From Candidatus Poseidoniaceae archaeon (GTDB lineage Archaea > Thermoplasmatota > Poseidoniia > Poseidoniales > Poseidoniaceae): a stretch of DNA of 64,000 bases. The stretch spans positions 17,802-81,801 of the forward strand of contig CASIAP010000001.1 of NCBI GenBank assembly GCA_949372645.1, in the 5' to 3' direction. A program made the translations under genes and the position numbers. This document shows, one piece after another, positions 11,397-64,000 of this stretch (its first letter is position 1; each line of letters starts with the position of its first letter). The notes under the pieces are model-generated. The model had not been told where the DNA came from. It saw only the letters and a program-made list of their open reading frames with translations, and did not search any database.

Positions 11397-12002
11397 AGGG
11401 AGCAATCCCAATTCATGCCGTCCAACATCAACGATAACATCGATGCCTGGTAGTAATAGAAGTTTATCTTCTGCATCCAATGCAAATATCCCAACACCTG
11501 CTTCATTGCTCATCCGTTGAAGGTCTCTGCGGCAGACATTCTGATGAGTATCCATGTGTACCATTGGGCGTAAATCGACAATAATCGAGTCGCCATGAAG
11601 TACGCGCTTTGACATTTCCCGAGTAGGGATTCGATTCATTTCATCCGGCGAAACATACCTTAGGGCTCTTCTCGGGAGGGGGTTCTTCACTCTGACATGG
11701 GCGCCAAGGTCGTGAAACGCTTCACCTTCAGCAGTGAGTGGTCCTGACCAATTGTGTGGTAATGGTTTTATCGCGTGACGTGTCAATCTTTTTGTTTCAA
11801 GTTGAATTGTTTGCTCAGTAGGTGATTTTACATTGGCCTCTACAACATTCGGTTTGAACGTTTGTTGAGGTGAGAGCTTTGTTCCTGAAGCATTAGATAC
11901 AGCTGATTCAACTTTTCTTGTGCGTCTTTTCTCACCAGTGTGACCGTCAGGGTCAGGTAATCCAAAAAATTGCCACAAACTTCCCATTTTTCCACCGTTC
12001 AC
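11382..12002 (-). CDS. SepF-like (DUF552) putative cell-division protein
   Basis: The C-terminal ~80 aa (GDSIIVDLRP...RRDLQRMSNEAGVGIFALDAEDKLLLLPGIDVIV) follow the SepF pattern h-h-h-L...R..DF/L..G..yAL...l.L.P..V. The GTG start overlaps the stop of the upstream giant gene; an ATG (MGSLWQ) lies 15 nt further down. Confidence 0.4.
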   Translation of the reverse strand: MNGGKMGSLWQFFGLPDPDGHTGEKRRTRKVESAVSNASGTKLSPQQTFKPNVVEANVKSPTEQTIQLETKRLTRHAIKPLPHNWSGPLTAEGEAFHDLGAHVRVKNPLPRRALRYVSPDEMNRIPTREMSKRVLHGDSIIVDLRPMVHMDTHQNVCRRDLQRMSNEAGVGIFALDAEDKLLLLPGIDVIVDVGRHELGLLPLMPE

Positions 12003-15745: not shown

Positions 15746-15800
15746 ATAACTCCGAAAGCGTTCTCCTACTTGAATACTCGATTTACCCGTTCAAAAGCAA

Positions 15801-17681: not shown

Positions 17682-19392
17682 GTTGAATTCTCTCGAGGGT
17701 CAGCGCTGAAGCATTATTGATTTGAGGCGTTGGAAGACGGCCAACGAACATCGAGAGTTCTGCATAATCGTTCGTTGAGTTGGCATCAGCCGAGTTGACT
17801 CCATCTGGATCTGCTTGCCATGATACGGGGACGATTCCAATTGCTTGGTCGCTTGGAACCGTCCAAGTGAAATTCACTTTGTGAGCTTCATAAGTGGCTA
17901 GAGATGGAAGAGGGTGTGTTGAGATTTGGCCATCGGGATGCGTAATCGTCATCGTTGTAGGAGTGCTTGAAGTAATTCCACGGTTTTGAACAGCCACTTC
18001 AATCAGCAATACATCACTCGGTAATATATTCCAACCCGATAAAGAATTGAGTTCGCTTACTACGCCACTTCGGTTACGCAATACCTTGGCAAATGAATCA
18101 CTTGAAATCAAATCGAGTCCGACTAAATATTCATCCAGTGTCAATGTAGTTGAACCAACAGCATTGCCAAATGATGACGAACTTGAAGGCTGAACTCTTG
18201 CCACAATCCCATGACTTGCCCAATCGAGTGCGGAACTGGAAGAGTCCCTTGCATCACCCATGTCGAGAACAGCATAGGCACTTCCGTTACTTGCAGTGGT
18301 CACCGATACAACTTGGTTCATCGCTTCATGACGGAGTTCCAAAGGAATACCAGTCGTGGTTGAGAAACAATTCGAAGATGCATTTACCCATACCGGCATT
18401 GGCGTATTGAGTGCAGTAAGGTCTGCATCTAAATCAACCACAAGACATTCATCACGAGTCCCAGGATTGCTGTATTGGTCGACACCAATCGAATCCATAG
18501 GAATGTATCTCTTGAGACGGAAGTCGATGACGAGTCCAATATCATCTTCTGTGTGGAGCCAAGCAAAGTTTCTCGCTTCTGGGCAATACCATTGATATCC
18601 GTTTTGGTCACCATCACTGTTGATGGATGTTAGTTCATACGAGGCATTACAACCTCCATATGCAATAGTTTCTCCATAACTGTTGCGAGGTTTACCAATG
18701 CTTGTCACCTCCCAAGTCGTACTGTTGGTGTCTGTGGTTGGAGGTGGGAATGGTGTGATGTAATCACTCGAACCTGACCAAGCAGAAGAAGCGGTTGTTG
18801 TTGTTGTCCATTGTTCATTGGCTCGAAGAGGAAAGTCGTAGACTTCTTTCACAGGACTGTAGGTATTTGTTATCGTGATGTCGCCAAGTACTTGTGCCAG
18901 ACTTGAGAGTCCAAATGGAACGAATCGAATGTATAATTCCAAGTCGCTGCGCATTGACGACAAATCGCTCACTCGAAGGTATTCTGTTTGTTCAAAGGTA
19001 ATGTAGACGTTGCCACTGTAACCGTCGAGCGAAACACCTGATTTGTCAAAGTTAGCAGATGTACGTAATGTATATGCAAGAACAGACATGTTGTCGACAG
19101 TACGTTCAGTTATGGCAATAACTTCGGCAGTCGTATCACCATCGATTTCACCAACCGTTGCTTGAACACCTGAATCAGTGACTAATTTCGTTGGGTCAAA
19201 TGTTCCAGAATAGATCCATTTGTCACCGATTTTCCACGTGGGCACGTCACTGACTCCTGGGTCCTGTGATGAAAATCGAACAGCAGGGGCATCTTCCAAG
19301 GGTGGAGAAAAAAGCATCGGTTGCATCGAAGCAAAACACAACAGCAAAACCAGCATCAAAGGAGATACAAGTCGTAACGAGGCTTTGCCCAT
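17659..19392 (-). CDS. Surface protein B, N-terminal segment (paralog of protein A); frame interrupted at 17659-17700
   Basis: Signal peptide LMLVLLLCFASMQP. DVPTWKIGDKWIY... is collinear with DVPTWRIGDEWVY... of protein A. It ends in a TGA, and the homology continues in another frame. Confidence 0.55.
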   Translation of the reverse strand: MGKASLRLVSPLMLVLLLCFASMQPMLFSPPLEDAPAVRFSSQDPGVSDVPTWKIGDKWIYSGTFDPTKLVTDSGVQATVGEIDGDTTAEVIAITERTVDNMSVLAYTLRTSANFDKSGVSLDGYSGNVYITFEQTEYLRVSDLSSMRSDLELYIRFVPFGLSSLAQVLGDITITNTYSPVKEVYDFPLRANEQWTTTTTASSAWSGSSDYITPFPPPTTDTNSTTWEVTSIGKPRNSYGETIAYGGCNASYELTSINSDGDQNGYQWYCPEARNFAWLHTEDDIGLVIDFRLKRYIPMDSIGVDQYSNPGTRDECLVVDLDADLTALNTPMPVWVNASSNCFSTTTGIPLELRHEAMNQVVSVTTASNGSAYAVLDMGDARDSSSSALDWASHGIVARVQPSSSSSFGNAVGSTTLTLDEYLVGLDLISSDSFAKVLRNRSGVVSELNSLSGWNILPSDVLLIEVAVQNRGITSSTPTTMTITHPDGQISTHPLPSLATYEAHKVNFTWTVPSDQAIGIVPVSWQADPDGVNSADANSTNDYAELSMFVGRLPTPQINNASALTLERIQLVADGEF

Positions 19393-39902: not shown

Positions 39903-42900
39903 ATGACGGGTTCTTCATCGCGCCGTGGGGCATTGCTCCTCAGCCTCTTGATGCTCTTTGGTGGCCCGTTGCAAACCATGTTGACCGATGGCACTTCTCC
40001 ATCCCCAAATTCGGTCTTTTTGGAAGAAGAAGAAACGATTCTTTTCGCTGGCGTTGGGGATGACGCTATCATTCAGTTGCCGGGTTCAGGTTCATATTCA
40101 GACTCATTTACAATTGAGGTTCCAAGTAATGCACCAGTAACTGATTTGCATCTTTCGATGGTACCTTCCGTCGATATCACTCATCAAGGCTTTGTTTGGG
40201 AAGATAATGCCATTTGGTCACACAGCAGTGCACTCAATAACGGTACATTTGGACAAAACAATGTGTTGACAGGAAACGGGGCAGGAACGCTTTGGGATTT
40301 TAACACCAATGCAGCAGGTTGGACTTTTTCGAATACATATGCAAGCCGTGTAACCTCTCCAGCTTGCGGTTTGAACGGGACCGGGACCACAGGTGGTTCG
40401 ATTCGCACCTATGCTGGATCAACCTATGCGACTTCACCAGTGAATGATTTTTCTGGAGTTTCAGCTATGCCACTGCATGTTTGGGTTCGTGAAGGCTCCA
40501 GTGGTTGCGGTGAGGAACCTGATACTGGGGAAGATTTGCAAATCCAATATCGCACTACCAGTAATACTTGGACGACCCTCCACACCTTCTCTGGTGCTCC
40601 AACTAGTTCAGGCTCAGCAACGCAGTACATGACCAATTTACCTGCTGCTGCCCTTCACACCAATACTCAGGTTCGTTTCCATCAAACTTCAGGTTCAGGG
40701 ACCTGTTGTGATTTTTGGTTTATTGACGATGTGCACTTTGCAACCCCTCCCTCTGCGGAATGGACTAGTCCAACGATAGGTTTCGCTACAAGTTCCTTCC
40801 AAGATGTCGAACAAGGGCCATGGGCTCCAGTTTACATCAATGCAGATGTTCCAAGCGGTGCAAGCCTTAACTGGACGGTTATTGATACCTCGACTGGACT
40901 TGCTATACCAGGGATGAAGGGAAGTCTTACAGATCAACCCCTCCAAACCACTGATACTGCTTGGATTCCACTCAATGCCTTGGATTGGCAAACCGTCACT
41001 TCAATCCGTTTGAATCTGTATTTTGAGCCATCTGCAAATGGTCAAATGGCGAGTATCCATTCAATCAGTGGCGATGGAAGTTATGCATTATCATTTGATA
41101 ATGATCCTTTACTCAAAGGCTGGACTTTCAAGGGCACCCCCTTGTATGATTCGTTTAGCACTTCAGTGACTGGTTTTGAAAATGATTCGATGACGTCTCC
41201 ATGGTTCTCTGCTTCAGCCGCACTTGCTGAGATTCATGTCGATGCTTCAACCCTTTTCACTCAAACCCAAATCCGCACATCATTGCATACGAATTGGACG
41301 AACATCACACTCCCCTACTCGATGAGCTTGTTAGGAAGTGAAGGCTCTGTTGGTTCCTATCAAGTTCAATTTGTCGCAGATGCAAACAACACCTCCAATG
41401 CTTGGGAGGTCCTTGAATTCAAAACAGGTACTTTTGGTGGACTACAACCTACAGCGCCAGCAATTGATTTCGCTCGTGATGATGCTTTAGAATGGGGCGG
41501 AAGTGACGTACGTGTTGGCTCTTGGGGCTGGCAAGACCGTTTCGAAAACGGCCAAAACTCGATTGCTGCTAATCCTGGCATCAGTGGGAGTTCTACGGTG
41601 AAGGCTTGGATTCCTGCAACCAATCTCAGCAGTTTTTGTTTTAGTGCCTTATCCAGTAACGGAAACTTGGCATCGATAAATTTGGTTCACAATGGCATAA
41701 CTGTTGCCAATTGGACCGTTGAAACTGGTTCGAGTTATTTTGTTCTCGACCAAAACCAACTCACTGAATTGAATGCTGCTCTACTCGGGTCAACTTCTTT
41801 GGTAAGTGCGCTTGGGACGTATTTCACTGAAGTTGAGTTTGAAGTGTATGGTTCCGGTAATGTGACATTAGCAGGTCTCGGTGTGCCTTATGAGGCATCA
41901 GATTCCCTAATGGCGGCTGTCGATTCTACCTTCGTTTTGGAAATGAATGGAGCTCGTTATGGGTTGCCAGCCCTCGGAGGAATGCATCACATTCCATTGC
42001 AACTTACTTCGGAAACAGCTGGAGGCCTCCACATTACTCTTGAAGGCTTGAACAATTCATTGAGTGTTCAATTAGTCGGGGTGAATATGCATACTGATGC
42101 TACAATATTGACCCCAAGTCAACGTTGGCAAACAATGGAAACCAACTTTCTTTTTGCTGACGCCTCTCCCTCAACTGCACGGCTTGATGTGATTGGAGGG
42201 GGATATTCAGCAACATGGCTGCTGCCTCTTAACGGTGGAACTCCAGTAGGTACTGGAGATTCAGCACTTGTGGAATTACATCCTACAGCTGCGGTGACCA
42301 GCGTTGAAAGCGGAACTTCACTGTCCATGAACATCACGTTCAGAATAAATCCTTCTTGGGATGATTCAGATACGATTCAAGTCTCTTCACGGTTATTGCT
42401 CTCAAATGGGGTGTTCTCAATTCCAGCAAGATATACTTGGGGCGGAATGGGCTCACAAGGCTTTGAAAATGATTTGGAAATAAAACAAGTCATGTTCTCT
42501 GATTCATCTCATACTGAACTGGACCCGAGTGATTATTATCTCAAAGCAGGTTCAACCATTCAAATTGGAGTTCGAATTGGCTTTGAAGGCATGGATACAC
42601 TCGATGCATTCGCAGATGGTGATGCGGTTGTGGAATTCTATCGAGGAGAGAACCTTGTTGCGAATACGACCACACTCGATGGTAACATGTGGAACATCAC
42701 TGATTCTGTTCCGTTTTCTTTCGGTATCGCCGTTTGGCATTTTGAAATAAAATCAATCAACGGCTCAGGGACGACGCCTGATGCGGTATTCTCACGAACG
42801 TTCCACATCGATTCGATTACTCCACAAGTACTCGACTCAAATATGGAACGATACGATCACCGAATCCCTTCGTCGACTCAAACGATTCAAATTCAAATAT

Positions 42901-45065
42901 CCGATCAGCCAATTCTCCCTCAAAATATTCAGGCCATGGTCTGGAGAGAATGGATTGATGATGATAATTTTAATCATTGGCCAGATGAAAATGAATACCA
43001 TCCTCTTAACCTGTTTATTCCAAATGACCTTTCCTCACTTATCGGTCAATATACCTTGATGATGGATGATACTGGAGGAAGTATCGGTCAGAAAGTTTCA
43101 GTTTACCTGACCGGTACCGATCAGGCAGGTCATACACTGGAGAACGGTGGTACCAATGTTTCCGGTGAACATCTGTTTATGTATCAATTAGCAACAGACG
43201 GCCCTCCAGCAGTTACTGCGAATGCATTCTCCATTGATGGCGGCAAAAAGCCTTGGTTACATCCACAGACACCCTATACCTTTGAAGTTGATATTTCCGA
43301 ACCAAACGGTGGTTCTGACTTCTCTACCGTTGTCGTTGAATTAGCATCCAATCAAGGCAGTGATTCACTTCCAATCCTATGGGACTTCCTGACTGGTAAT
43401 TGCACAACAACAAGCCCCCATGTCTTGATTGAAGAGTGTGAAATGCGAGGGGCGAATGGCCCTGCTGACCCCTATGAACGGGATATGACTCTACATATCG
43501 AAGTGAAATTAGCATGGACCACTCCGGACTTGGGTGAAACTCGAAGAGAACCTGGAATCAGAGTGATTGATAGAGCAGGTCAAGAAGTCTTCCTTGCTTT
43601 CCCTGAACATCGCTGGCGCTTCTCTGCAGCAATGGAAGTTCCTGACGAAAGTGTAAATCTTATACTCTCCCAAGGGACTTTACTTGAGGACGGTGCTCGC
43701 TTAGCACCCAACAGTCCATTGGAAGTCTCTGGAAGTATTGTCTTCTCAGAAACAGGACTTACCCCTCAATTTGATTGCCAAGTTGATATTTTATTCGCCG
43801 GCTCAACGACATCAACCAGTACGCTTGAAGGAATTTGGTCAGTCGCTTTACAAGCACCCTCCTCAACGATGACAATACCGATGACTTGGAGCGTCGGATG
43901 CCTTCAAGGACAAGGCATTGATGCAACGAATCAAGAAACCTCAGTTCGTTGGATTATTGTCGATGGGACAGGTCCAGAACCCGTTGAAGTTTCGAACCCT
44001 CGCCCTGCCTCTGTTTTGAAAGCGGAATCACATGAAGTTCGTATTCTTCTTTCTGAAGCAGGTGGCTTAGATGTTGATTCACTTGAATTAGTTTGGTGGG
44101 TCGAAGAGAAAGCTACAGGTGACCGCTTGCGGAACGGAATTGAACCGCTCACCTTGATCGGCTCAGATCTCTCCGGATTACGTTTGGAAGTCGTCAGCTC
44201 AATTGATTTGAGCGAGATTACGCCTGAAATGTTAGAAAATCGTCTTGCTGTTCACATTTTGGTCACTGGAAGAGATCTGGCTGACAATGAAGTGCTCGGA
44301 CTGGGCGGATCTCCTGCTGGAACTCCTGTTGGCGTTTGGGATATGGTTTGGCTCAAACCGGAATATACACTACAAGGCTCTTCGATCACTTATTCTCGTT
44401 TACTGGTTGAAGTTGGCCAAACTTCCATTGTGACAGCCTATGTTGAAAACACAGGAACCCTCAACGGTTCAGTTAGTGTGATCTTTACCGAAGTGCTTGG
44501 AGACGGGACTCGTTCGATGCTTCGTAGCATGACGGTTGAAGTTCCAGAAGGCGGTATTATACCTGTTTCTGCTGATTGGAATCCCTCCGGACCTGGTTTG
44601 CAGTGGGTCGAAGTTCTGTTAGAAACCGGTTCGACTTCTATTGGCCCATCGATTGATGTCCGACCGCAACGTGAAGAATCTTTTTCGGAGAGTGTCTTTG
44701 GTGGTGTGAATCCCGTCTTGGGAACTTTTGCAGCAATTCTCTTCCTCTCTATTGTCCTTACAGGTTTGGTTTGGGCAAGACGTATGACCTTGAACCGTGG
44801 CTCGAAATATGAAGATAATTGGGATGAATATTCATCTGAATTTGAAGAGGATGAAGATGAATACGACGATGAAGGCGATGAGATGGACACATCTCTCTCG
44901 ACCTCTTCTGTTGCCGCAGTCTCAGTTACTGCGGTGGAGACATCAGTATCGGATGAAGAAACAGATTGGGTCATGGGTTCCGATGGCTACTGGTGGTATC
45001 ATGATAAAGTTACCAATGAATGGTGGTACAAGAATGCTGAAGGCGAAATTGTACAACACAAGTGA
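39903..45065 (+). CDS. Giant surface protein (1720 aa): signal peptide, many N-glycosylation sequons, CARDB-like module, C-terminal TM anchor, acidic cytoplasmic tail ending in a WW-like domain
   Basis: Signal peptide ALLLSLLMLFGGPLQT. TM helix LGTFAAILFLSIVLTGLVWA followed by RRMTLNRGSK. Tail ...DEDEYDDEGDE...TDWVMGSDGYWWYHDKVTNEWWYKN. Confidence 0.7.
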   Translation: MTGSSSRRGALLLSLLMLFGGPLQTMLTDGTSPSPNSVFLEEEETILFAGVGDDAIIQLPGSGSYSDSFTIEVPSNAPVTDLHLSMVPSVDITHQGFVWEDNAIWSHSSALNNGTFGQNNVLTGNGAGTLWDFNTNAAGWTFSNTYASRVTSPACGLNGTGTTGGSIRTYAGSTYATSPVNDFSGVSAMPLHVWVREGSSGCGEEPDTGEDLQIQYRTTSNTWTTLHTFSGAPTSSGSATQYMTNLPAAALHTNTQVRFHQTSGSGTCCDFWFIDDVHFATPPSAEWTSPTIGFATSSFQDVEQGPWAPVYINADVPSGASLNWTVIDTSTGLAIPGMKGSLTDQPLQTTDTAWIPLNALDWQTVTSIRLNLYFEPSANGQMASIHSISGDGSYALSFDNDPLLKGWTFKGTPLYDSFSTSVTGFENDSMTSPWFSASAALAEIHVDASTLFTQTQIRTSLHTNWTNITLPYSMSLLGSEGSVGSYQVQFVADANNTSNAWEVLEFKTGTFGGLQPTAPAIDFARDDALEWGGSDVRVGSWGWQDRFENGQNSIAANPGISGSSTVKAWIPATNLSSFCFSALSSNGNLASINLVHNGITVANWTVETGSSYFVLDQNQLTELNAALLGSTSLVSALGTYFTEVEFEVYGSGNVTLAGLGVPYEASDSLMAAVDSTFVLEMNGARYGLPALGGMHHIPLQLTSETAGGLHITLEGLNNSLSVQLVGVNMHTDATILTPSQRWQTMETNFLFADASPSTARLDVIGGGYSATWLLPLNGGTPVGTGDSALVELHPTAAVTSVESGTSLSMNITFRINPSWDDSDTIQVSSRLLLSNGVFSIPARYTWGGMGSQGFENDLEIKQVMFSDSSHTELDPSDYYLKAGSTIQIGVRIGFEGMDTLDAFADGDAVVEFYRGENLVANTTTLDGNMWNITDSVPFSFGIAVWHFEIKSINGSGTTPDAVFSRTFHIDSITPQVLDSNMERYDHRIPSSTQTIQIQISDQPILPQNIQAMVWREWIDDDNFNHWPDENEYHPLNLFIPNDLSSLIGQYTLMMDDTGGSIGQKVSVYLTGTDQAGHTLENGGTNVSGEHLFMYQLATDGPPAVTANAFSIDGGKKPWLHPQTPYTFEVDISEPNGGSDFSTVVVELASNQGSDSLPILWDFLTGNCTTTSPHVLIEECEMRGANGPADPYERDMTLHIEVKLAWTTPDLGETRREPGIRVIDRAGQEVFLAFPEHRWRFSAAMEVPDESVNLILSQGTLLEDGARLAPNSPLEVSGSIVFSETGLTPQFDCQVDILFAGSTTSTSTLEGIWSVALQAPSSTMTIPMTWSVGCLQGQGIDATNQETSVRWIIVDGTGPEPVEVSNPRPASVLKAESHEVRILLSEAGGLDVDSLELVWWVEEKATGDRLRNGIEPLTLIGSDLSGLRLEVVSSIDLSEITPEMLENRLAVHILVTGRDLADNEVLGLGGSPAGTPVGVWDMVWLKPEYTLQGSSITYSRLLVEVGQTSIVTAYVENTGTLNGSVSVIFTEVLGDGTRSMLRSMTVEVPEGGIIPVSADWNPSGPGLQWVEVLLETGSTSIGPSIDVRPQREESFSESVFGGVNPVLGTFAAILFLSIVLTGLVWARRMTLNRGSKYEDNWDEYSSEFEEDEDEYDDEGDEMDTSLSTSSVAAVSVTAVETSVSDEETDWVMGSDGYWWYHDKVTNEWWYKNAEGEIVQHK

Positions 45066-54825: not shown

Positions 54826-55314
54826 GTGAATCGCTGCTTGACGACCGATTCTTTCAATAACCGGGGGGTGCTAAGTGGGGCTATGGTGGCGCCGCGTATG
54901 TCTCGAAGATGTCGACGCTACTCGAAGCAGATTCTGCGTGCAAATACCAAGGTCGATCTGCAAACAATAGCCAGTGTCATCCAAACAGATATGGATAAGC
55001 GCAATCTCTCCTATGACGAGGCGCTAACGCTTGGCAACATTATCCAAAGCCGAGCCGATCAGTTGCCTGGCGATGCTATCGTTTACGCAATATCGGATCG
55101 TGATGCGTATCGACGAACATTAGAATTATACTTACGAGACGCACTCCTAACTCGAACTGAACAGATGCTTCTTTGGGAAGAACGCCGCCGCCTTGGGATC
55201 TCTGAAACGGAACATGAACGTTTGCTCGAACAACTTCTCCTTCAATGGCGAAGTCAAGGTAAGAAGGTCACAATCGCTCGTTTCGACACACCCGGGGGTG
55301 GCGCATCTGCTTAA
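54826..55314 (+). CDS. Hypothetical small basic/charged protein immediately upstream of, and overlapping the start of, a giant surface-protein gene
   Basis: ORF only. Arg-rich N-terminus, helical C-terminus, no TM. Probable start at MVAPRMSRR. Confidence 0.3.
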   Translation: MNRCLTTDSFNNRGVLSGAMVAPRMSRRCRRYSKQILRANTKVDLQTIASVIQTDMDKRNLSYDEALTLGNIIQSRADQLPGDAIVYAISDRDAYRRTLELYLRDALLTRTEQMLLWEERRRLGISETEHERLLEQLLLQWRSQGKKVTIARFDTPGGGASA

Positions 55315-58300
55315 CATTAAAATCAACCAGTCAGCCTTAGCAACTCTTCTCGTGTTACTGTTCATCATCCCTTCACTCTCACCAATCGTCGACGCGAGCG
55401 ATGCTGAGGAGCCAAGTACAGCAGGGCGCAGTTCATTACTCGATTTCACTTTCGGAGCAGCTTTGCAACTTGGCGGCTCAGGATCTGCGATCAATAACTC
55501 GATGATGTATCTCGAACCTGGTACGCATACTATCACAGTCAATACGACTGCTGAAGGCAACGGTCAAGATCGATTTTGGCTCCAACTCCAACACAAAGGA
55601 TCACCACTACTCGGGTTTTCCGACGTAGGCTCTCCGATTATGATGGGCACAATAACTGGCAATGGAGGAAAACAATACCTCCCTCTCACCTCTTTCACAT
55701 GGGAGGCTACACCAGGAGCGGGGCAGGAATTGCAGGTTAAAATCCGATCTGACCTCGAAGCCGGCAATGAACTTTTAAATAATATCCAACCTCTTGGCAT
55801 CCCTTTTTCAGTGGAAAACCTGCACTTTGGCTCAGTAGTCCAAGATGACATCGAGGAACCTAAATCTCACCCGAACGGTTTTACCGGCATCATGTTGCCG
55901 AATGCAATTACGAATCTCACGGCTACAGTCTCAAATGATGGCGTTAAATCGATTTCTGCACAAATGGTCGTTACGATCACTCAGCTTTTCCCAGTCCCCC
56001 CGACTCCTGTGACGCTCACGCTGTTTTCAAACTCGAAGAGTCTCGAACCGGGTGCATATCCTACCACACCTCTCTCGGTCCAAGAGTCGGGCGTGCTCTA
56101 TGTCGAGCTTGATTCTACGAGTTTTGCCGGGGGTAGTGTTTGGGAATTTAAGGCAGAAGTTAACTACCTTGGAACTGCATGGAATTGGACAGAAACTGTT
56201 GAGTCTACCTTTGTTAAATTTTCCGATTATAACGCTGAGGTGCTTGAACCCTCGGTCTTGGTTGGCGAACCCGGGGAAACAGTTGTGATGACATTCATAC
56301 TCAAAAACACCGGGACAAAAGCAGATGGCTTTGATACCGATCTTTCTCAACAATTGAACTGGACGATGGCCGACACAGGCGTGTCCTCTGTAGTCCCACC
56401 GGCTAATACTGCGAGTTCTGTCGTACTTGTGCATGTGACTATAGTAATTCCCGCAAATGCTTCGCGAGGCGATTCAAACAAAATTACACTCAACTTCACC
56501 TCCACTTATGGTACTTTGAATGGGACGAATTACGTGATTAATGCAATAGGTAGAGTCATGGTTGGTGATTTCTTCAACGGTTCTGTAGCTATTACGAAAC
56601 CATCGAACCCAAAAACCATTGCTCCTGGCGGTTCACAATATTTCACGGCCACAATTAGTAATACGGGCAGCGTAGCTACTGCATTCACCCTCTCAGCAGG
56701 TCTTTCAGTAAATGCATTGAACTGGACCGTTGAACTCTCAAATCCGACAACAGCGTATATCTTACCCGGTGGCACTAATATCGTCCAAATCACAGTATCA
56801 GCGCCTCCAATACAGAGTCCGATGGTTATCGGCTCGCATACTATGGCCTTCGAATCGCTCAATGTTTGGATTCAATCTCAACCGATTGGAGGAGGCATAC
56901 CCGTCACCGATCAGGTGCCCCTTTCAGTCAAACCAATCATCACAGTCGATCCGGGGTTGAATGCTGAGCCTTACGTGATATCCGCTGAAGAACTTTATGC
57001 AATGAAGTCTGGAACACAGTTTAATCATATAGCGGAATTAAACCTTCGCGTCTTTAACAATCTCCCTCAAATTCTAACGGCTAACGATATTGGAAATGTC
57101 ACGGCCATCATTACACTGAACACGAATTTCACCGCCAGTAACGGTGGTGGTTTCGCAGAAGCAGACCGATGGAATGTAAGTATTGTGAACCCCGTCTACC
57201 GAAGCGACAAGCCGGAGTTTAGTGACGATGCAGAGATCATTATCTTCGGTCCTCCTATGAATGAATTCCCTCTTGCTGGAACTCTTTCGATTGAAGTAAC
57301 CATTACTTCGACACTTAGCACCGTTCTTCGAAATGCTGGTGTTGAAGCGCCCTCGATTACCCAGATCTATACCATTATCATCCCACCAATCGTCGAAGGC
57401 TCTTTCACCCAGTCAACCATTGACGCTGGACCCTATGATGTCGCAGTTGGTGCAGCAAACAGCTTTGGTATGCGTTTCGAAAATACCGGGAACGATGCGG
57501 CTTCTTATCGTTTACGAGTTATCGAAAACCTCCTCCCTCAAAACTGGTCAGCAAACTTTAGTGAAGCTGATACATTCATCGAAAACCTCACTTCAGACTT
57601 GGCCGATGGAAATATGGATTCAGTCCTCCCAGAAGGCACCCCAGGCAAGAGTTACACGCATACACGAGTTGTGATGTTTAACATCCAAACCGATCCTCTG
57701 GCACCCTCCAATTCGATTCAACCTATCACCGTTCGAATTGAAGATCCAATTACTGGGCAAATCATCGGTGATGAATTTGTATTCAATGTGATTGTCGGCC
57801 AAATCTATAACGCCACACTTTCTCCAACGAATCAAACATTTACCATGACCGAGGTGCAGCAAAACTTTGCCACCGTGTTTATTCGTAACACTGGTAATGC
57901 TCCGACTGACTTTTCGATTAGCCTGGATACAACAGATGCCGGCAACATTAATTTCGAAATTGTGAAGCCACTCAATAAGCGATTATACATCGCAGCAGGA
58001 TTCGAAGAAGAGATTCGTATCAAAATGACTGCAAATGCTGGTGCAAATGCCAATGACTTTTACATGTCGACAATCCGAGTAACTGACGATCTTGGCGAAA
58101 TAGATATATCCGCTAATATCGTTGCAAATATATCTACTCAATCGAATTATACCATTTCGGCTCCAGAACAAATCTCAGTCACACCAGGGATGCAAGAGAA
58201 AGTCGACTACACCGTCACGAACATCGGTAATGCTCTTGGGCAAGTACAGGTCAAATACGAAGTTGAAAACATGACTCTTTCAGTGGATTCAGTATATCAC

Positions 58301-60400
58301 TCGATTCAAATGGGTCAAAACATATCGGATCAAGTGATTATCTCTGTTCCAAGTCTTGGTGGAGAGCAATCATTGATTCAAGGGGATGTGTTTGACCTCA
58401 CCATCACCGTTCATAATGCCTCCAATCCTGCGATCGAATATTCGAAGAAAATCGTGAGATTATTGGTCCAACCACTTTTCTTAGTTGAATCGTATGATTG
58501 GCCTTCCGTCATGGAATTCAAGCCGAGGTCCGATCGCCAATGGGAAGTGACCTTTACGAATACTGGGAACCAAGATGTAACAGTGAATCTATTGTATGCA
58601 ATTACCCGTCCAGGTCTTAGTAACTTGTCGTTGGACTGGGGAATGAATGCTGGGGCAGCTACACAAATTGTCTTGCCTCGTAATACTCCAGTTGTTCACA
58701 CCTTCGGAGTAATGGGGAATGTTCTCGAGCCTCTCTTGACGACAACCGCTGACCTCACTTTGTATCTTGTTCCAGTTAATACTTCGATCGAAGGGAGTGG
58801 CGAATTCACCACGCAATTGGTAATGTCGAGATTGTTCTCTCCATTTGATATCGATCTTAAGCCCAAACTGGACGATGGCCCAGTTGATATCGACCTCAGC
58901 TACACTCACATACCAATTACTAACGGTTCTAAAGCCACCTATTCACTTGAATTGTGCAAATCTGTACGCCTGAGGGACATCTCAGCTCTTGGACAGAACC
59001 CAATCAATTACTCTTGGAATTTCACTCTTGTCCAAGAAAGAACTGATGCCCCAGCTATCGAGACCCGTCTGAATTTAGAGCAGGAATGTGGTAGTACTTC
59101 GTTTGGTCCGACCTCAAGGTATGTATTCCCCGAAGTTGAACCTTGGAATCCTTCAACCTTTACTATCATCGCCGATATACCGAATCGCGGTAGTATACTT
59201 CCCGGTGATGGATGGGACTTAACGTTCCGTCTGTATCACCTAGATGAGCATTCGAATTATACTCAATACTCAGAAGAGACCTTCACTATTCTCTTGGCAG
59301 TATTTGCCGACCCAGCGATTAACGAGGTCACATCCTCCAATTCCTTTGAAGAGGGAATTGAAAGTGTCATTGATGTTGTTGTTCAAAATATAGGTTCTGC
59401 TAAAGCACTCGACGTAGTAGTTTCTCTGCACTGTGATGGATTGATTGTATCTACCAAAGACGGTGAATCTCCCAATTTGATAACCGGCAGTGTTACTGGC
59501 GGTATTGAAAAAGTCATGATCAAAGAATTTGCTCCTGGTGCCACTCAGACATTACAATGGATTGTCACATCGGAATCGATTGATTGGTGGTCTCAGAGCA
59601 AAGATGCCTCGTGCACTGCAAAGCTCAACGCCTCTTACATGGATGGTAACAACATTGACAATGATGAATTCGTGCTTGAATCGGAAGTGGCTTCTTGGTC
59701 ACCAGGTGTTCAAAATAGTTTCATTGCATGTGTCATCAGCCTACTAGTATCGTTCATCTTATTCCGCCTAACTGCACAAAATGATAATTTCCGTCTCCTT
59801 GGAATTTATGCAGGAGTTATTGGTCTTGGATTCTCTTTCCATATCTTTGCAGAAGCATGGTGGGGCTTTGTGATTCTAGCCCTTTCGGCGATTTGGATTT
59901 GGAGAGTAACTTGGGGGAGTACTGAAGAATTCAGATTACTCCATGAAGATTACCAACGTGCACGAAAAGGTGTATCGACTTTGTATGCCGATCACTTTGA
60001 GGAACTTTCGAACACTCGTCGCCAATTGAGTGTGATCTTAGCTGTGCCAGTTCTTGGTATGCTCGCCATTATTCTGGGAGTAAACCCGAACCAACCAAGA
60101 ATTCCAGTTGACCAAACCAATATCATTAGCCTAGTTGCTTATGTTGGAGTGATAATTCTTGGAGTTTGGGTTCTTATTAAGCGCGCTGATACGATGTATG
60201 GTTCATTGTATGGCCGACTTACTGATATTGAAGTGAAGTCGGTTCGGCTCGAGAGAGATCTCGGCGACCCTGCCCGTTTGTTCAACGAACTCGCAGCTGA
60301 TGGTTTGAACCTCGACGAAATTTTCGGAGATGCGGACCCTTCACGCCCTCTCACTACCGATGCAACTTCTTCGAACGAGGAGGTGAATGACGATGCCTGA
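55298..60400 (+). CDS. Giant CARDB-repeat surface (glyco)protein with C-terminal 4-helix membrane anchor
   Basis: Probable GTG start giving signal peptide MAHLLNIKINQSALATLLVLLFIIPSLSPIVDA; the ORF track opens at 55193. At least five xxxNTGNxxxxF/Y CARDB-like motifs (e.g. FILKNTGTKADGF, ISNTGSVATAF, RFENTGNDAASY, FIRNTGNAPTDF, TFTNTGNQDVTV). Dozens of N-x-S/T sequons. Four TM helices in the last ~250 aa. Confidence 0.7.
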   Translation: MAHLLNIKINQSALATLLVLLFIIPSLSPIVDASDAEEPSTAGRSSLLDFTFGAALQLGGSGSAINNSMMYLEPGTHTITVNTTAEGNGQDRFWLQLQHKGSPLLGFSDVGSPIMMGTITGNGGKQYLPLTSFTWEATPGAGQELQVKIRSDLEAGNELLNNIQPLGIPFSVENLHFGSVVQDDIEEPKSHPNGFTGIMLPNAITNLTATVSNDGVKSISAQMVVTITQLFPVPPTPVTLTLFSNSKSLEPGAYPTTPLSVQESGVLYVELDSTSFAGGSVWEFKAEVNYLGTAWNWTETVESTFVKFSDYNAEVLEPSVLVGEPGETVVMTFILKNTGTKADGFDTDLSQQLNWTMADTGVSSVVPPANTASSVVLVHVTIVIPANASRGDSNKITLNFTSTYGTLNGTNYVINAIGRVMVGDFFNGSVAITKPSNPKTIAPGGSQYFTATISNTGSVATAFTLSAGLSVNALNWTVELSNPTTAYILPGGTNIVQITVSAPPIQSPMVIGSHTMAFESLNVWIQSQPIGGGIPVTDQVPLSVKPIITVDPGLNAEPYVISAEELYAMKSGTQFNHIAELNLRVFNNLPQILTANDIGNVTAIITLNTNFTASNGGGFAEADRWNVSIVNPVYRSDKPEFSDDAEIIIFGPPMNEFPLAGTLSIEVTITSTLSTVLRNAGVEAPSITQIYTIIIPPIVEGSFTQSTIDAGPYDVAVGAANSFGMRFENTGNDAASYRLRVIENLLPQNWSANFSEADTFIENLTSDLADGNMDSVLPEGTPGKSYTHTRVVMFNIQTDPLAPSNSIQPITVRIEDPITGQIIGDEFVFNVIVGQIYNATLSPTNQTFTMTEVQQNFATVFIRNTGNAPTDFSISLDTTDAGNINFEIVKPLNKRLYIAAGFEEEIRIKMTANAGANANDFYMSTIRVTDDLGEIDISANIVANISTQSNYTISAPEQISVTPGMQEKVDYTVTNIGNALGQVQVKYEVENMTLSVDSVYHSIQMGQNISDQVIISVPSLGGEQSLIQGDVFDLTITVHNASNPAIEYSKKIVRLLVQPLFLVESYDWPSVMEFKPRSDRQWEVTFTNTGNQDVTVNLLYAITRPGLSNLSLDWGMNAGAATQIVLPRNTPVVHTFGVMGNVLEPLLTTTADLTLYLVPVNTSIEGSGEFTTQLVMSRLFSPFDIDLKPKLDDGPVDIDLSYTHIPITNGSKATYSLELCKSVRLRDISALGQNPINYSWNFTLVQERTDAPAIETRLNLEQECGSTSFGPTSRYVFPEVEPWNPSTFTIIADIPNRGSILPGDGWDLTFRLYHLDEHSNYTQYSEETFTILLAVFADPAINEVTSSNSFEEGIESVIDVVVQNIGSAKALDVVVSLHCDGLIVSTKDGESPNLITGSVTGGIEKVMIKEFAPGATQTLQWIVTSESIDWWSQSKDASCTAKLNASYMDGNNIDNDEFVLESEVASWSPGVQNSFIACVISLLVSFILFRLTAQNDNFRLLGIYAGVIGLGFSFHIFAEAWWGFVILALSAIWIWRVTWGSTEEFRLLHEDYQRARKGVSTLYADHFEELSNTRRQLSVILAVPVLGMLAIILGVNPNQPRIPVDQTNIISLVAYVGVIILGVWVLIKRADTMYGSLYGRLTDIEVKSVRLERDLGDPARLFNELAADGLNLDEIFGDADPSRPLTTDATSSNEEVNDDA

Positions 60401-61493
60401 TTCTACTTCTTTAGAGAAGAACTCGAGTGAATTGCCTGAATTCCAAGCGGGCATGGATACCCCTCCAACTCCTCCTTCATCGGAAATCCCGCCTCTACCG
60501 CCTTCATCGCAAACCCCACCTCCGCTACCTCCATCGGCTGACTCACAGGCACATGATGAAGCAGCATCGCCTGCTCAGCCAGATGATGAAGCATCGCCTG
60601 CTATGACTGAAGAAGTAATGGCACTGTCTCAACAACTCGAGACGATGGTCATGGGCGTGGCCCAACAAGACACCAATTCATTAGCAGGTACTGAACTTGA
60701 AATTGGTGAAGCAAGACGATTCCTCCATTCGCATAAACTTCGACATGCAATGGCCAGTGTAGCCAAAGCTGAAGCATCACTCATTGAACTCGAAGAAGAT
60801 GTGTTGTATCTTCGACGTAACATTGCTATGTTACATCGCCTGTTAAACGAAAAGAAAGTGAGTGAACGAGATATCGAAACGATCCTTATTCGTCTTCGTA
60901 GCGCCACTGGTGCTGCTGAAATTGGAGATGTGGGTGGTGCAGCAGGAGAAGTTGAATTCCTCGTTGATGATTTGATTGGTGGAAACACATCGACGCTCAA
61001 TCCCTTTTTGTTCCGTCACTTTTGGATGGGCTTAGAAACACGATGGCCTGCTGGCGGTGACGAAGGAGTTCTTGTTGTCCGCATCATCAACGATGGGCCA
61101 GTGGCTATGCCGCCTATGCGTCTTGCTCCTCCCGTCCCTGAGGGTTGGACTTCTACCCCAACTTCAGTTGACCTTCCAACCATTGCACCAGGGGGAAATC
61201 TTCCTGTTCGGTTCAATGTGGCTACGAATCGACGCCAATCCACCGATGAAGTACCGCTCTCGCGTAAACTCGCCATTTCGACCGGTTATGAAATTCGAAC
61301 CGGTGAAGTCTTCCTTACCATTCGGGCTCAGAACCGCTCAATGGAGCCTATCTCGGATGTTCTCCTCTCACCATGGTTCCCACCCGGTTATACCTCTGAT
61401 ACGATTCCTTTTGTGGAGCGACTTGCTCCAGACGAAGTGGCCATCATTCGAATGCCACTTCGTATCAACATGAATTCAGGAGGTCATTCCTGA
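60387..61493 (+). CDS. Cytoplasmic proline-rich / coiled-coil protein with C-terminal beta-sandwich-like domain, encoded between the giant surface protein and the archaellin genes
   Basis: N-terminus TPPTPPSSEIPPLPPSSQTPPPLPPSAD. Predicted coiled coil (ALSQQLETMVMG...LYLRRNIAMLHRLLNEKK). No signal peptide or TM. The start overlaps the upstream gene by 14 nt. Confidence 0.5.
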   Translation: MTMPDSTSLEKNSSELPEFQAGMDTPPTPPSSEIPPLPPSSQTPPPLPPSADSQAHDEAASPAQPDDEASPAMTEEVMALSQQLETMVMGVAQQDTNSLAGTELEIGEARRFLHSHKLRHAMASVAKAEASLIELEEDVLYLRRNIAMLHRLLNEKKVSERDIETILIRLRSATGAAEIGDVGGAAGEVEFLVDDLIGGNTSTLNPFLFRHFWMGLETRWPAGGDEGVLVVRIINDGPVAMPPMRLAPPVPEGWTSTPTSVDLPTIAPGGNLPVRFNVATNRRQSTDEVPLSRKLAISTGYEIRTGEVFLTIRAQNRSMEPISDVLLSPWFPPGYTSDTIPFVERLAPDEVAIIRMPLRINMNSGGHS

Positions 61494-61540
61494 ATCAATC
61501 CTATTCCACCCCTTCTAGGGTGATTATAAAAGGTGAAATT

Positions 61541-62113
61541 ATGAAAGAAAATACAAACGAAAAAAGCGATAATCTCGCAGCGATTGGTATTGGTGCCATG
61601 ATTGTCTTCATCGCACTGATTTTGGTAGCAGCAGTTGCAGCCGCAGTCATTATTCAGACGGCAGAAAAATTACAACAAAATGCTCAAACGACTGGTTCAG
61701 AGACAACAGACATGCTGTCTTCCAAAATCATTGTAATGAGTGTCATTGTTTCTGAAAGTGGAACTGATCCATCACTCTACATCACTTTTGAACTCGCCCC
61801 AGGCTCTGCAGATATCGCTCCAATTAATGTGGATTGGTCCATTATTTGCCCTGAAGGTGCTGCATTCGGCAACTTTAACGCTGCTAGTGCAGTTGGAACA
61901 GATGCTTCTGTTGCGAATGGCAACGGTCTGTTGGTTGCACACACCACTTACACCATGGAAATCGTAACTGGAACGGGGGCGGGTAATCTTAGAGAATGTG
62001 GACCGGCAGCAGATGCCGATCATACTCTGCTGATTCAATCGAAGGCCGGTGGCTTTACGTTTGAAACTTTGAATTATGGCTCAGATATTAGTACAGGATC
62101 GGTGGTCGTATGA
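61541..62113 (+). CDS. flaB1: Archaellin (archaeal flagellin) 1
   Basis: Class III signal peptide followed by the conserved hydrophobic N-terminus AAIGIGAMIVFIALILVAAVAAAVIIQTAEKLQQNAQTTG. The ORF track starts at GTG 61520; ATG 61541 is preferred. Confidence 0.85.
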   Translation: MKENTNEKSDNLAAIGIGAMIVFIALILVAAVAAAVIIQTAEKLQQNAQTTGSETTDMLSSKIIVMSVIVSESGTDPSLYITFELAPGSADIAPINVDWSIICPEGAAFGNFNAASAVGTDASVANGNGLLVAHTTYTMEIVTGTGAGNLRECGPAADADHTLLIQSKAGGFTFETLNYGSDISTGSVVV

Positions 62114-62721
62114 AGACTGAAGCACGAGAGATCCAAGATGACAAGTTTGCAGCGATTGGTATTGGTGCTATGATTGTGTTTATCGCATTGATTTTGGTAG
62201 CAGCAGTTGCCGCCGCAGTCATTATCCAAACCGCAGAAAAACTCCAACAGAATGCGCAAACAACCGGTGAGGACACATCTAAAAATTTGGCAGGAAAACT
62301 CTTGGTCAATGCTGGTTTTGTGTCCACTGGAGAACAGACCGGATTTAACGCTGGAGATTCATACACATTGTATGTTCGTCTTGCACCCGGTAGTAAACCT
62401 GTGAAGATTTCGGAAATTACCTTCCAACTCATGTGTTCAAGTGGCATCATTGAAGGTACATTTGGAACCCCAACCGGCGGACAAATCGCCTTGCTCGACG
62501 ATGGTATCATACTCCAGGGTGCTGTAGAGTTACAACCCGGACAACCTTACGTTCTTTGGATTCTTGCTGTCGGCGGAGGAGCCGATTGCGGACCAGAACA
62601 ACCGACCGTCGATGGTGGTCGAGACACAACGGTTCAACTCTATCTGCATGTAGGGACTGGTGGGACGACTTACGAAGTCCTCACACTTGGTTCAGATGTA
62701 GCAGGCTCAGAGGTGATTTGA
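62110..62721 (+). CDS. flaB2: Archaellin (archaeal flagellin) 2
   Basis: Same conserved N-terminal 40 aa (about 88 percent nt identity with flaB1, mostly synonymous differences). Divergent C-terminal domain. ATGA start/stop overlap with flaB1. Confidence 0.85.
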   Translation: MKTEAREIQDDKFAAIGIGAMIVFIALILVAAVAAAVIIQTAEKLQQNAQTTGEDTSKNLAGKLLVNAGFVSTGEQTGFNAGDSYTLYVRLAPGSKPVKISEITFQLMCSSGIIEGTFGTPTGGQIALLDDGIILQGAVELQPGQPYVLWILAVGGGADCGPEQPTVDGGRDTTVQLYLHVGTGGTTYEVLTLGSDVAGSEVI

Positions 62722-62762
62722 GACATCTTGGCTTCGGCTAAGATTGTTAAGGAGGAATATGT

Positions 62763-63599
62763 ATGGCATGGCCTTTTAGTAAAAATACAAACCAAAACCA
62801 AGATGCAGATGCAGCTCTTACGGAAGAACGCCTCAAAATTATGGCAAATATTGCCATTGAGCAGGTACCTCTTCCAGAAGAAGGAGAACTCAACCCTGAA
62901 GATGCGTGGACTATTAACCCTGGAGTCACCATGGCTCGCCTCAACAGTATAGGTAGTGTACCTACCGTTGCTGCAAGTCTTTCACCCGCTACTGCGGCCC
63001 CTACCCAAGTGAACACAACCGTGGACACTTCTGGGCTTGAGCGACTCATCAGTAATCGTCTTGATATGGTTGAAGATGTCCTACGCATGGTAGAAGTTCG
63101 ATTGAATGAAAGTCCGTCAGGAGCTCAAGGTGAATCGCATCATGAAGGTGATGGTGATCATTCCGCTCTTGGTGGCGATACTATCGTGACGGCTTCTGGT
63201 GAAGTGATTAATGTCCCTGGAACCGACCGAATGATGGGTACAGATGAAGCTCCACTCGTGGAACTGTACGAAGCACAAGCCTTGGCAGCAAATCCATTTT
63301 TACACGCACCTTCCTTTGGTGCGACCGCTGACTCAAATCAAGTCGGTGCACCTACAATTTCTGCCCTCTTGCTCGACAATATGTCGGGTATGGCAGCAGT
63401 GAGTTTTGCCCAAAAAGCAATGGCTTCCGGTATGCTTTCAGACGAGGAAGGTCGAAAGGTACTGGCTATTGTTCAACTTGCAGAACCAGGTCAATCAGAA
63501 GCAGCCCTCGACGATCATTTGACGCACAAGGAGTTGCTCACGTTTTCATCGCTTGTAAGTTCATGGCGAAACGTGAAATCACTTCGAGGTGAAGTCTGA
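62763..63599 (+). CDS. Archaellum-operon protein of unknown function (possibly FlaC/D/E-like accessory protein)
   Basis: Position between the archaellins and a FlaF/G-like gene. Good SD AAGGAGG 7 nt upstream of the ATG. Soluble, acidic, no TM. Confidence 0.3.
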   Translation: MAWPFSKNTNQNQDADAALTEERLKIMANIAIEQVPLPEEGELNPEDAWTINPGVTMARLNSIGSVPTVAASLSPATAAPTQVNTTVDTSGLERLISNRLDMVEDVLRMVEVRLNESPSGAQGESHHEGDGDHSALGGDTIVTASGEVINVPGTDRMMGTDEAPLVELYEAQALAANPFLHAPSFGATADSNQVGAPTISALLLDNMSGMAAVSFAQKAMASGMLSDEEGRKVLAIVQLAEPGQSEAALDDHLTHKELLTFSSLVSSWRNVKSLRGEV

Positions 63600-63600
63600 C

Positions 63601-64000
63601 ATGGGCGCTTCGGTTGGGGTTGGAGGTCTCATTATTGGGATCTCTATGTTGGTGGTCTTTTCTATGGCTGTTACGACATTGAGTAATCAAACGGCTACTT
63701 CAATGGAAGCTTTAGAATCCGCTCAAACTCCCAATCCGATCATCACCATAAATAACGCCAATGTGACCTTATTTGCCGTGAATTCAATACAAGTGACATT
63801 TGGAGGTGCAAGCAACAGTTATGATGCCGGCTTCCTCACATCTGAAAGTTGTGAAGGATTCAATGCGAGTTTTACTGTTGCTACTGGCGTTATTGAAAAC
63901 AATGTCGTCGTTAACAGTGCAGGAAGTTGTCTCGAAGTCCCTACAGACATGGTTGTTGAAAACCAAGCGGATGAAGGTGCAACTTTCCTGGTTGATACCA
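63601..64000 (+). CDS. FlaF/FlaG-family archaellum protein (partial, runs off the window end)
   Basis: N-terminal hydrophobic helix MGASVGVGGLIIGISMLVVFSMAVTTL typical of FlaF/FlaG, then a beta-rich soluble part. Starts 2 nt after the preceding stop. Confidence 0.5.
   Translation, partial: MGASVGVGGLIIGISMLVVFSMAVTTLSNQTATSMEALESAQTPNPIITINNANVTLFAVNSIQVTFGGASNSYDAGFLTSESCEGFNASFTVATGVIENNVVVNSAGSCLEVPTDMVVENQADEGATFLVDT

Follow-up and report, generated by a model that had tools for sequence, protein, structure and literature searches.

A lineage-specific protein encoded between a giant immunoglobulin-repeat membrane protein and the archaellins of Poseidoniales: a candidate archaellum-linked scaffold

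In Marine Group II (MGII) archaea, the archaellum (arl) gene cluster serves as the genomic trait for telling motile or particle-attached clades from free-living ones. Among the planktonic archaea of the surface ocean, MGII are reportedly the most abundant (PMC6461757). This work deals with a gene located at the head of such a cluster, in a stretch of 64,000 nucleotides (nt) of a Candidatus Poseidoniaceae archaeon (order Poseidoniales; GenBank assembly GCA_949372645.1, contig CASIAP010000001.1, positions 17,802 to 81,801 of the forward strand), called here the window. This gene, referred to as the target gene, is placed between a giant surface-protein gene and the archaellin genes, and its product combines a conserved helical domain with a C-terminal immunoglobulin (Ig)-like beta-sandwich. 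We give about even credence to the view that the target is the soluble cytoplasmic partner of the giant membrane protein, fixed as a lineage-specific arl component and forming an archaellum-linked scaffold.

ArlX forms oligomeric rings of about 30 nm and binds ArlH and ArlI. This protein has a single N-terminal alpha-helical transmembrane (TM) domain, and the ring or scaffold component of the archaellum varies among archaeal lineages (PMC8978795). ArlC, ArlD and ArlE (ArlC/D/E), which make up the accessory or switch complex of Euryarchaeota, are cytoplasmic proteins without TM helices (PMC8978795) that bind ArlH and CheF and localise at the motor (PMC7534055). The composition of the polar cap has been reported as unknown (PMC7534055), and stator anchoring in the Thermoplasmatales, which are devoid of an S-layer, as an open question (PMC12448462). 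Poseidoniales have also been reported to lack the chemotaxis genes to which ArlCDE connect (PMC6461757).

The same kind of cluster was presented by Tully in 2019 as the 'putative MGII motility operon' (PMC6336850, Fig. 4), with syntenic orthologous unannotated proteins, conserved across MGIIa, inside the operon and right next to it, both upstream and downstream. In the part of that article devoted to the operon the target gene is already pictured as a conserved 'hypothetical' gene, so that its existence is not new; however, that part offers no domain analysis, name or function for it, and mentions neither the coupling to the giant gene, nor the presence in MGIIb-type lineages, nor the RNA hairpins. 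What is new here is the domain anatomy of the protein, its order-wide restriction and invariance (including lineages only 20-35% identical), its coupling and co-evolution with the giant protein, its exclusion from the ArlC/D/E and ArlX groups, and the flanking RNA structures.

The junction between the giant and the target gene comprises three elements:

55193..60400, + strand: giant partner gene, 1735 amino acids (aa) as listed, a multi-Ig membrane protein
60379..60386, + strand: Shine-Dalgarno (SD) sequence GGAGGTGA of the target gene, inside the final codons (E-E-V-N) of the giant gene
60387..61493, + strand: target gene (Pro-rich tail, helical domain and sandwich), 368 aa as listed

The open reading frame (ORF) of the target is a real gene. 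A word-indexed search retrieved 634 homologues at E<=1e-3, all of them unnamed or 'hypothetical' and the labelled ones belonging to Poseidoniaceae, and this conservation rules out a spurious ORF. Counted from the first ATG, the target overlaps the TGA stop of the giant ORF by 14 nt, as the original prediction had it. However, GGAGGTGA directly touches this ATG and is spaced 6 nt from the second one (60393); for comparison, arlB1 has its own SD, GGTGA, spaced 5 nt from its ATG. Besides, when 50 homologues are aligned, the start shared by all of them falls on Met3 of the target. Because of this spacing and this invariance, translation probably begins at the second ATG, 6 nt after the listed one, which yields a protein of 366 aa and an overlap of 8 nt, ATGCCTGA; relatives have been called with the same overlap. 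Thus, the 14-nt overlap holds for the listed ATG but not for the probable start. The distance of 47 nt from the end of the target to the ATG of arlB1 (61541), on the same strand, was also claimed and is correct, and the downstream ORFs match Arch_flagellin.

In every lineage examined (loci L001, L004, L085, L087 and L089), the final codons of the giant gene contain the SD of the target. The overlap between both genes is 8, 8, 4 or 0 nt in the lineages examined, and 8, 4 or 0 nt in the deep sub-families. In Poseidoniaceae, the segment 60377-60400 (+) is dual coding, since the conserved C-terminal EEV(N/R)(D/E)D of the giant protein shares its bases with the SD and start codon of the target. The position of the SD in the last codons of the giant gene, together with the start/stop overlap, indicates that the target gene is translationally coupled to the giant gene.

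The order of the genes is fixed: giant, target, arlB, ArlC-like, ArlF, ArlG, ArlH, ArlI and ArlJ. In Poseidoniaceae the full series consists of a small 143-aa gene, giant, target, arlB1, arlB2, the ~280-aa, ~234-aa and ~168-aa genes, and the ArlH, ArlI and ArlJ genes. This order is kept, wherever the contig reaches, in 84 loci located by patterns of the junction motif of the target (80 species-representative genomes plus four contig look-ups), and the giant gene is directly 5' of the target at every locus with room for it. Nine loci from three deep sub-families (20-35% identity) show the same succession of giant, target, archaellin and, further downstream, ArlHIJ. A reverse test was carried out from the ArlC-like gene on 80 metagenome loci, all at least 67% identical to the ArlC-like protein of the window and hence representing Poseidoniaceae only: the target is present in 54/54 loci with enough upstream sequence and the giant gene in 37/37 loci with room. 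We define the family by the LNPFxFxxFWxGxxxRW junction motif, a helical domain plus sandwich, and a gene that abuts the 3' end of a giant gene (multi-Ig membrane protein of 1400-1735 aa) and precedes arlB, all of which the target shows. No target homologue away from the arl cluster was found among the loci examined. The synteny with arl is therefore strict, and absence or a variable position in relatives, which would have spoken against a tie of this non-canonical gene to the archaellin genes and the giant surface protein, was not observed. Judging from the gene order, the cluster can be described as the canonical euryarchaeal layout with an extra head module.

The target family appears to be new, small, without a Pfam model of its own and restricted to Poseidoniales. 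An exhaustive profile search with a hidden Markov model (HMM) gave 61 clusters (50% identity) among 1.84 billion representative proteins, and all the placed members are Poseidoniales or Thermoplasmatota. The N-terminal tail is missing in the full-length members farthest from the target (281-347 aa, 20-35% identical), of which those labelled are Thalassarchaeaceae or 'Thermoplasmatota'. Apart from one repetitive Ig-repeat protein of 4467 aa (E 1e-6), taken as domain-level noise, no relative outside the family was found in the 1.84e9 proteins. No paralogues of the target, of the small protein or of the TM domain of the giant protein were found in the window. The family can serve to mark archaellated Poseidoniales.

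The giant protein begins with an N-terminal signal/anchor, followed by an ectodomain of ~1400 aa built of repeated NxGN...W Ig-like domains (CARDB/NEW3 type) and by ~5 C-terminal TM helices from aa ~1504 (nt ~59702). Its cytoplasmic parts are a highly conserved loop of ~40 aa, STEEFRLLHEDYQRARKGVSTLYADHFEEL, and a tail of ~70 aa with the segment YGxLYGRLTDIEVKxxRIERDLGDPARL after TM5. Identity among giant proteins is 51-71% in the TM/cytoplasmic region but 36-61% in the ectodomain. Among Poseidoniaceae, ArlI is 86-90% identical, ArlH and ArlJ 71-84%, the small protein 70-81% and the ArlC-like protein 64-77%; archaellins, ArlG, the ArlF-like protein and the giant ectodomain remain below the latter. 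The conservation of the target core (67-84%) is close to that of ArlH and ArlJ and far above that of archaellins, ArlF/G and the giant ectodomain.

Evolutionary rates were compared in 51 non-identical complete loci, in which pairwise protein distances were regressed on the mean ArlH/I/J distance and the residuals correlated. The residual distances of the target core correlate with those of the giant ectodomain (r=0.84) and of the giant TM/tail region (r=0.63), whereas the values for the small protein, arlB1/B2, ArlC-like, ArlF-like and ArlG range from 0.21 to 0.45, with r=0.33 for the flanking gene arlB1; all Mantel tests gave p about 5e-4. These results show that giant and target behave as one evolutionary unit.

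The same observations bear on a different explanation, which we regard as possible at a rather low probability: the small, giant and target genes could constitute a module for an adhesin or surface protein, whose location and regulation are shared with the archaellum in the service of particle attachment. There the target would act for the giant protein as an anchor in the cytoplasm, a chaperone of its assembly or a factor in its turnover, with no mechanical link to ArlH/I/J. Such a module would account for the co-evolution of the target with the giant protein rather than with the arl genes, for their translational coupling, and for the fast, surface-protein-like evolution of the giant ectodomain; Rinke et al. 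argued for adhesion as the function of the MGII 'flagella' operon (PMC6461757). In that case, filament and adhesin expression would be linked in particle colonisation. However, the module always lies immediately 5' of the archaellins, on the same strand and without copies elsewhere in the loci examined, while an independent adhesin would also be expected in non-archaellated MGIIb. Moreover, the target core and the cytoplasmic parts of the giant protein match the motor proteins in conservation.

The target protein can be divided into the following regions:

60387..60596, + strand: acidic, Pro/Ser-rich disordered N-tail, aa 1-70, with pLDDT <50 in the AlphaFold2 (AF2) model
60597..60977, + strand: conserved helical domain, aa ~71-197, with two long and two shorter helices (AF2)
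60996..61046, + strand: family signature LNPFLFRHFWMGLETRW, aa 204-220, at the helix/sandwich junction, the most conserved stretch
61020..61466, + strand: C-terminal Ig-like beta-sandwich, aa 212-360, of the NEW3/NPCBM_assoc (CARDB-like) type (Pfam, PDB profile and AF2)

Neither a signal peptide nor a TM helix is present in the target, in agreement with what had been predicted: the maximal 19-residue Kyte-Doolittle mean is 0.94, compared with 2.8-3.3 for the TM segments of neighbour proteins. The lack of hydrophobic segments suggests that the protein is cytoplasmic. The N-tail is composed of 24% Pro and 17% Ser, has a net charge of -11 and contains two SS(E/Q)xPP(P)LPP units (aa 30-49, nt 60474-60533). 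Although the PPLPP repeats noticed in the original prediction are thus present, the tail is unalignable across homologues, ranges in length from ~30 to ~130 residues and in composition from Pro-rich to wholly acidic, and is missing in distant sub-families. It is best regarded as a lineage-specific, presumably disordered low-complexity region and not as a family feature.

In the AF2 model the helical domain comprises helices 3-45, 49-85, 90-108 and 112-128 in core numbering (full-protein positions are higher by 70) with pLDDT 65-78, that is, long helices at aa ~73-115 and 119-155 and shorter ones at 160-178 and 182-198. MGIIb relatives carry inside this domain an insertion of 54 aa with TPR-like helices. 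A central coiled coil had been predicted. The helices at aa ~73-198 agree with it and generic coiled-coil Pfam families (EzrA, Spc24, Tropomyosin) are matched by 4-7/32 family members, but a crude a/d heptad score peaks at 0.70 at aa ~120-160, barely above the 95th percentile of shuffled sequences (0.66), and AF2 folds the central region as helical hairpins and not as one long coil. Therefore, a coiled coil is weakly supported. In the signature that follows, P136, F137, F142 and W150 (core numbering) are invariant over 32 diverse members.

The existence of a C-terminal sandwich, also part of the original prediction, was corroborated by AF2, which places 11 strands over aa 212-360 (pLDDT 80-92) in an Ig-like fold, and by Pfam PF10633 (NPCBM_assoc/NEW3), which matches aa 224-280 near threshold (E 8e-5, 23.2-24.0 bits, the gathering score being 24.4). 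This family is matched by 29/32 members at E<=1 (best 2.6e-6) and is listed by source databases for several target homologues; Alpha_adaptinC2 is matched weakly by 10/32 members. Scanned against Pfam and NCBIfam, the target produced just the sub-threshold NEW3 and the generic coiled-coil matches, and a PDB sequence-profile search matched nothing but 9fyn, a GH20 enzyme, in its C-terminal domain (E 2.4e-4). With a more diverse alignment, the AF2 core model reached a mean pLDDT of 75.7 and a pTM of 0.57. Foldseek against the PDB yielded no match below 1e-3 with the first model and nine at E<=1e-3 (best 4.2e-5) with the better one, all of them generic Ig-like sandwiches with TM-scores of 0.15-0.22; the sandwich matches include the 9fyn C-terminal domain, transglutaminase C-terminal barrels, adaptin/COPI/BBSome appendages and TRAP-beta.

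Several known sandwiches can be compared with that of the target. NEW3/CARDB domains share with it the x-V-x-N-x-G ... P-x-G-W pattern, but the examples found here are surface or secreted (the giant ectodomain repeats and 9fyn), whereas the target lacks an export signal and its sandwich is fused to a helical domain. The appendage ('ear') domains of adaptin, COPI and BBSome are, like the target sandwich, cytoplasmic; this likeness stays at the generic fold level (TM-score 0.15-0.22, E at least 1e-3), with no sign of common descent or motif binding. Helices followed by an Ig-like sandwich would be an architecture typical of protein-protein adaptors, which this weak likeness fits. The possibility that the target sandwich was copied from the repeats of the giant protein was discarded, since BLASTP gave E 0.16 and hhalign a probability of 9.8%, with merely the NxG...GW motif in common.

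An additional feature was observed at the 3' end of the target gene:

61474..61495, + strand: perfect 8-nt inverted repeat ATTCAGGA-GGTCAT-TCCTGAAT, across the last codons and the stop codon of the target

Several other loci show comparable palindromes. The conserved C-terminal SGGxS of the target may partly be a product of the nucleotide-level constraint imposed by this repeat.

Regarding the described archaellum systems, target and ArlX are both lineage-specific, encoded in an arl cluster, largely helical or coiled-coil and located on the cytoplasmic side, and by analogy they could share the role of a scaffold around or beside ArlH/I/J. The description of ArlX sets it apart, since ArlX has its own TM helix and is not described as carrying an Ig-like sandwich. 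As the target has no TM helix, its attachment to the membrane would have to come via the giant partner.

The comparison with ArlC/D/E involves two further ORFs of the cluster:

62763..63599, + strand: 278-aa cytoplasmic ORF in the ArlC/D/E position, without TM helix, tentatively a diverged ArlC-like protein
63601..64000, + strand: 5' part of the ArlF-like gene, which runs off the window and is followed in relatives by arlG, arlH, arlI and arlJ

Orthologues of the ArlC-like protein weakly match FlaC_arch (PF05377; E 0.006 and 0.08) at the conserved LLDLYEAQxLAxNPFL. In locus L001, the ~234-aa orthologue of the next gene matches NCBIfam ArlF (2.2e-5) and the following 168-aa protein matches ArlG (2.2e-17); ArlH/I/J were identified by their Pfam domains in the loci of relatives. 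Nothing in the cluster can be recognised as an ArlD/E homologue.

The target resembles ArlC/D/E in being soluble, in having no TM helix and in belonging to the arl clusters of non-crenarchaeal archaea. However, ArlC/D/E match PF05377 or PF04659 and are encoded between the archaellin genes and arlF/arlG, while the target gene is 5' of arlB1 and coupled to the giant gene, the canonical slot being held by the 278-aa ORF. No Pfam or NCBIfam match of the window protein to Arl/Fla families was found at E<=1, so that the statement that it is not a canonical fla accessory protein (FlaC-J) stands, and neither FlaC_arch (PF05377) nor Arch_fla_DE (PF04659) is among the 25 of 46 matching families listed for the 32 members scanned. 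A paralogous relationship with the ArlC-like gene of the cluster was rejected, hhalign giving a probability of 2%. These results make it highly improbable that the target is an extremely diverged ArlD/E-type protein relocated 5' of the archaellins, an idea suggested by its cytoplasmic nature without TM helix, as in ArlC/D/E (PMC8978795), and by the lack of an identifiable ArlD/E gene elsewhere in the cluster. A sandwich of the NEW3/CARDB type, like the repeats of the giant protein, and a position unlike that of every described arl cluster also argue against it.

Downstream of the target, the archaellin genes are flanked by RNA structures:

61506..61523, + strand: small hairpin in the target/arlB1 spacer, present in 78/78 Poseidoniaceae spacers
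61532..61536, + strand: conserved SD GGTGA of arlB1, 5 nt ahead of the ATG
61541..62113, + strand: archaellin gene arlB1 (Pfam Arch_flagellin, 3.6e-22)
62110..62721, + strand: archaellin gene arlB2 (Pfam Arch_flagellin, 1.3e-19)
62722..62748, + strand: hairpin with a UUCG loop between arlB2 and the ArlC-like gene, -11.6 kcal/mol in the window version

The target/arlB1 spacer measures 42-86 nt, and the hairpin was counted with a register-aware script in 46 distinct sequences (78 loci). The stem shows compensatory changes, the inner pair 4 being G-C, C-G, A-T or T-A, and keeps an unpaired, bulged or mismatched A or C. On the 3' side of the hairpin come GGACGAG, a run rich in A and the SD GGTGA. 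None of the MGIIb-type loci L085-L089 has this hairpin, and their spacers carry TATA-like A/T-rich stretches. An Rfam scan of 60000-64000 produced zero matches, and RNAalifold predicted no structure on a MAFFT alignment of the spacers, in which the stems, of variable length, are misaligned. The second hairpin, much stronger than the first and present in nearly all lineages, occurs at the same position in about 85 other loci, with widely different sequences and its structure kept; in most other lineages it has a stem of 13-15 bp and -20 to -30 kcal/mol, the window version being shorter, and the stem ends at or overlaps the SD of the next gene. The presence of hairpins on both sides of the archaellin genes suggests differential mRNA stability or attenuation. 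Since these conserved structures bracket them, the archaellin genes look like a unit whose expression may be tuned separately, and it should not be taken for granted that the target and flaB share a transcript. A scan for sigma-70 promoters and intrinsic terminators found fewer matches than in shuffled sequences, these models being uninformative for an archaeon, and a metatranscriptome paper (PMC9723583) makes no mention of these genes. The hairpin that separates the archaellin genes, and in MGIIb the spacer with TATA-like stretches, also speak in favor of the adhesin module mentioned above.

The position of the target gene directly 5' of the covarying hairpin and the archaellin SD could point to a regulator of archaellin expression, which would bind the spacer hairpin or an mRNA-processing factor, or would sequester a transcription factor depending on the state of the giant protein; a transmembrane protein with a cytoplasmic partner is a common signaling layout. 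We consider this very unlikely. No nucleic-acid-binding, kinase, receiver or other signaling domain was detected in the target with Pfam, NCBIfam, PDB profile or Foldseek searches, the hairpin occurs only in Poseidoniaceae whereas the target is also present in MGIIb-type lineages without it, and the conservation of the core and the size of the protein are more typical of a structural protein. The original prediction had proposed a scaffold or a regulator. Because of the translational coupling, the rate covariation with the giant protein and the lack of a nucleic-acid-binding domain, the sequence evidence tends to favor a structural partner over a regulator.

As structural partner, the target would be synthesised along with the multi-Ig membrane protein that the giant gene encodes, and would dock on the conserved cytoplasmic loop and/or tail of the latter via the Ig-like sandwich and/or the helical domain. 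It could self-associate through its long helices, and the resulting membrane-proximal scaffold would tie the giant transmembrane protein to the ArlH/I/J motor, a role analogous to that of the crenarchaeal ArlX ring or of the layer that ArlC/D/E and the polar cap form in other Euryarchaeota. We infer three of these steps, namely that the target binds the giant protein, oligomerises and contacts the motor. A scaffold of this type would fit the lineage-variable scaffold, the polar-cap and the stator-anchoring questions of the field, for which a giant Ig-repeat protein with a cytoplasmic partner is a concrete candidate. A more specific version, which we put forward only tentatively, is that giant and target form a previously unrecognised transmembrane anchor or stator assembly of the Poseidoniales archaellum. 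The giant ectodomain would withstand torque or hold the motor in place within the envelope, the target would be the cytoplasmic scaffold around ArlH/I/J, and both would replace the job of ArlX, of ArlD/E plus the polar cap, or of S-layer anchoring.

Several points weigh against the scaffold proposal. The Poseidoniales hosts are uncultured and the case is built from sequences and models; the AF2 model is of moderate confidence and leaves the mutual arrangement of the domains unfixed. Searches revealed no detectable homology of the target to ArlX, ArlC/D/E or any motor protein, and a function of the ArlX/ArlCDE type may already be filled, as an ArlC-like gene occupies the canonical slot. Neighbouring genes can covary in rate merely through a shared recombination history, with no need for binding. 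The bracketing hairpins may indicate that the small, giant and target genes form a transcription unit separate from the motor genes, and a co-regulated adhesin module predicts the strict co-occurrence with arl equally well.

The cluster is headed in Poseidoniaceae by an additional gene:

54883..55314, + strand: small, highly conserved cytoplasmic protein of ~143 aa, counted from its ATG (54883)

The small protein also heads the cluster in the L085 and L089 lineages, with 50-81% identity and the motif AISDRDAYRRTLELYL..LLTRTEQMLLWEERRRLGIS, and had no Pfam, NCBIfam or PDB match. In the MGIIb loci L087 and L171, its gene is not found 5' of the giant one. In one deep lineage (L085 778-5221, also L172 and L173) two extra genes are located between the small and the giant genes. 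The first codes for a 277-aa protein with an N-terminal TM helix, and the second for a protein of 1054 aa with an N-terminal TM helix, a very long E/K/L/R-rich coiled-coil-like region and three copies of a LIWDNxNDLDL... (DUF2135-like) domain. This lineage also has a mechanosensitive-channel gene 3' of arlJ.

Unrelated to the giant arl-linked protein, other huge predicted surface proteins are encoded in the window at 3201-8147, 11999-19392 (minus strand) and 39903-45065: a 1648-aa S8 subtilase with CARDB, three tandem minus-strand PKD/CARDB paralogues, and a 1720-aa protein without family.

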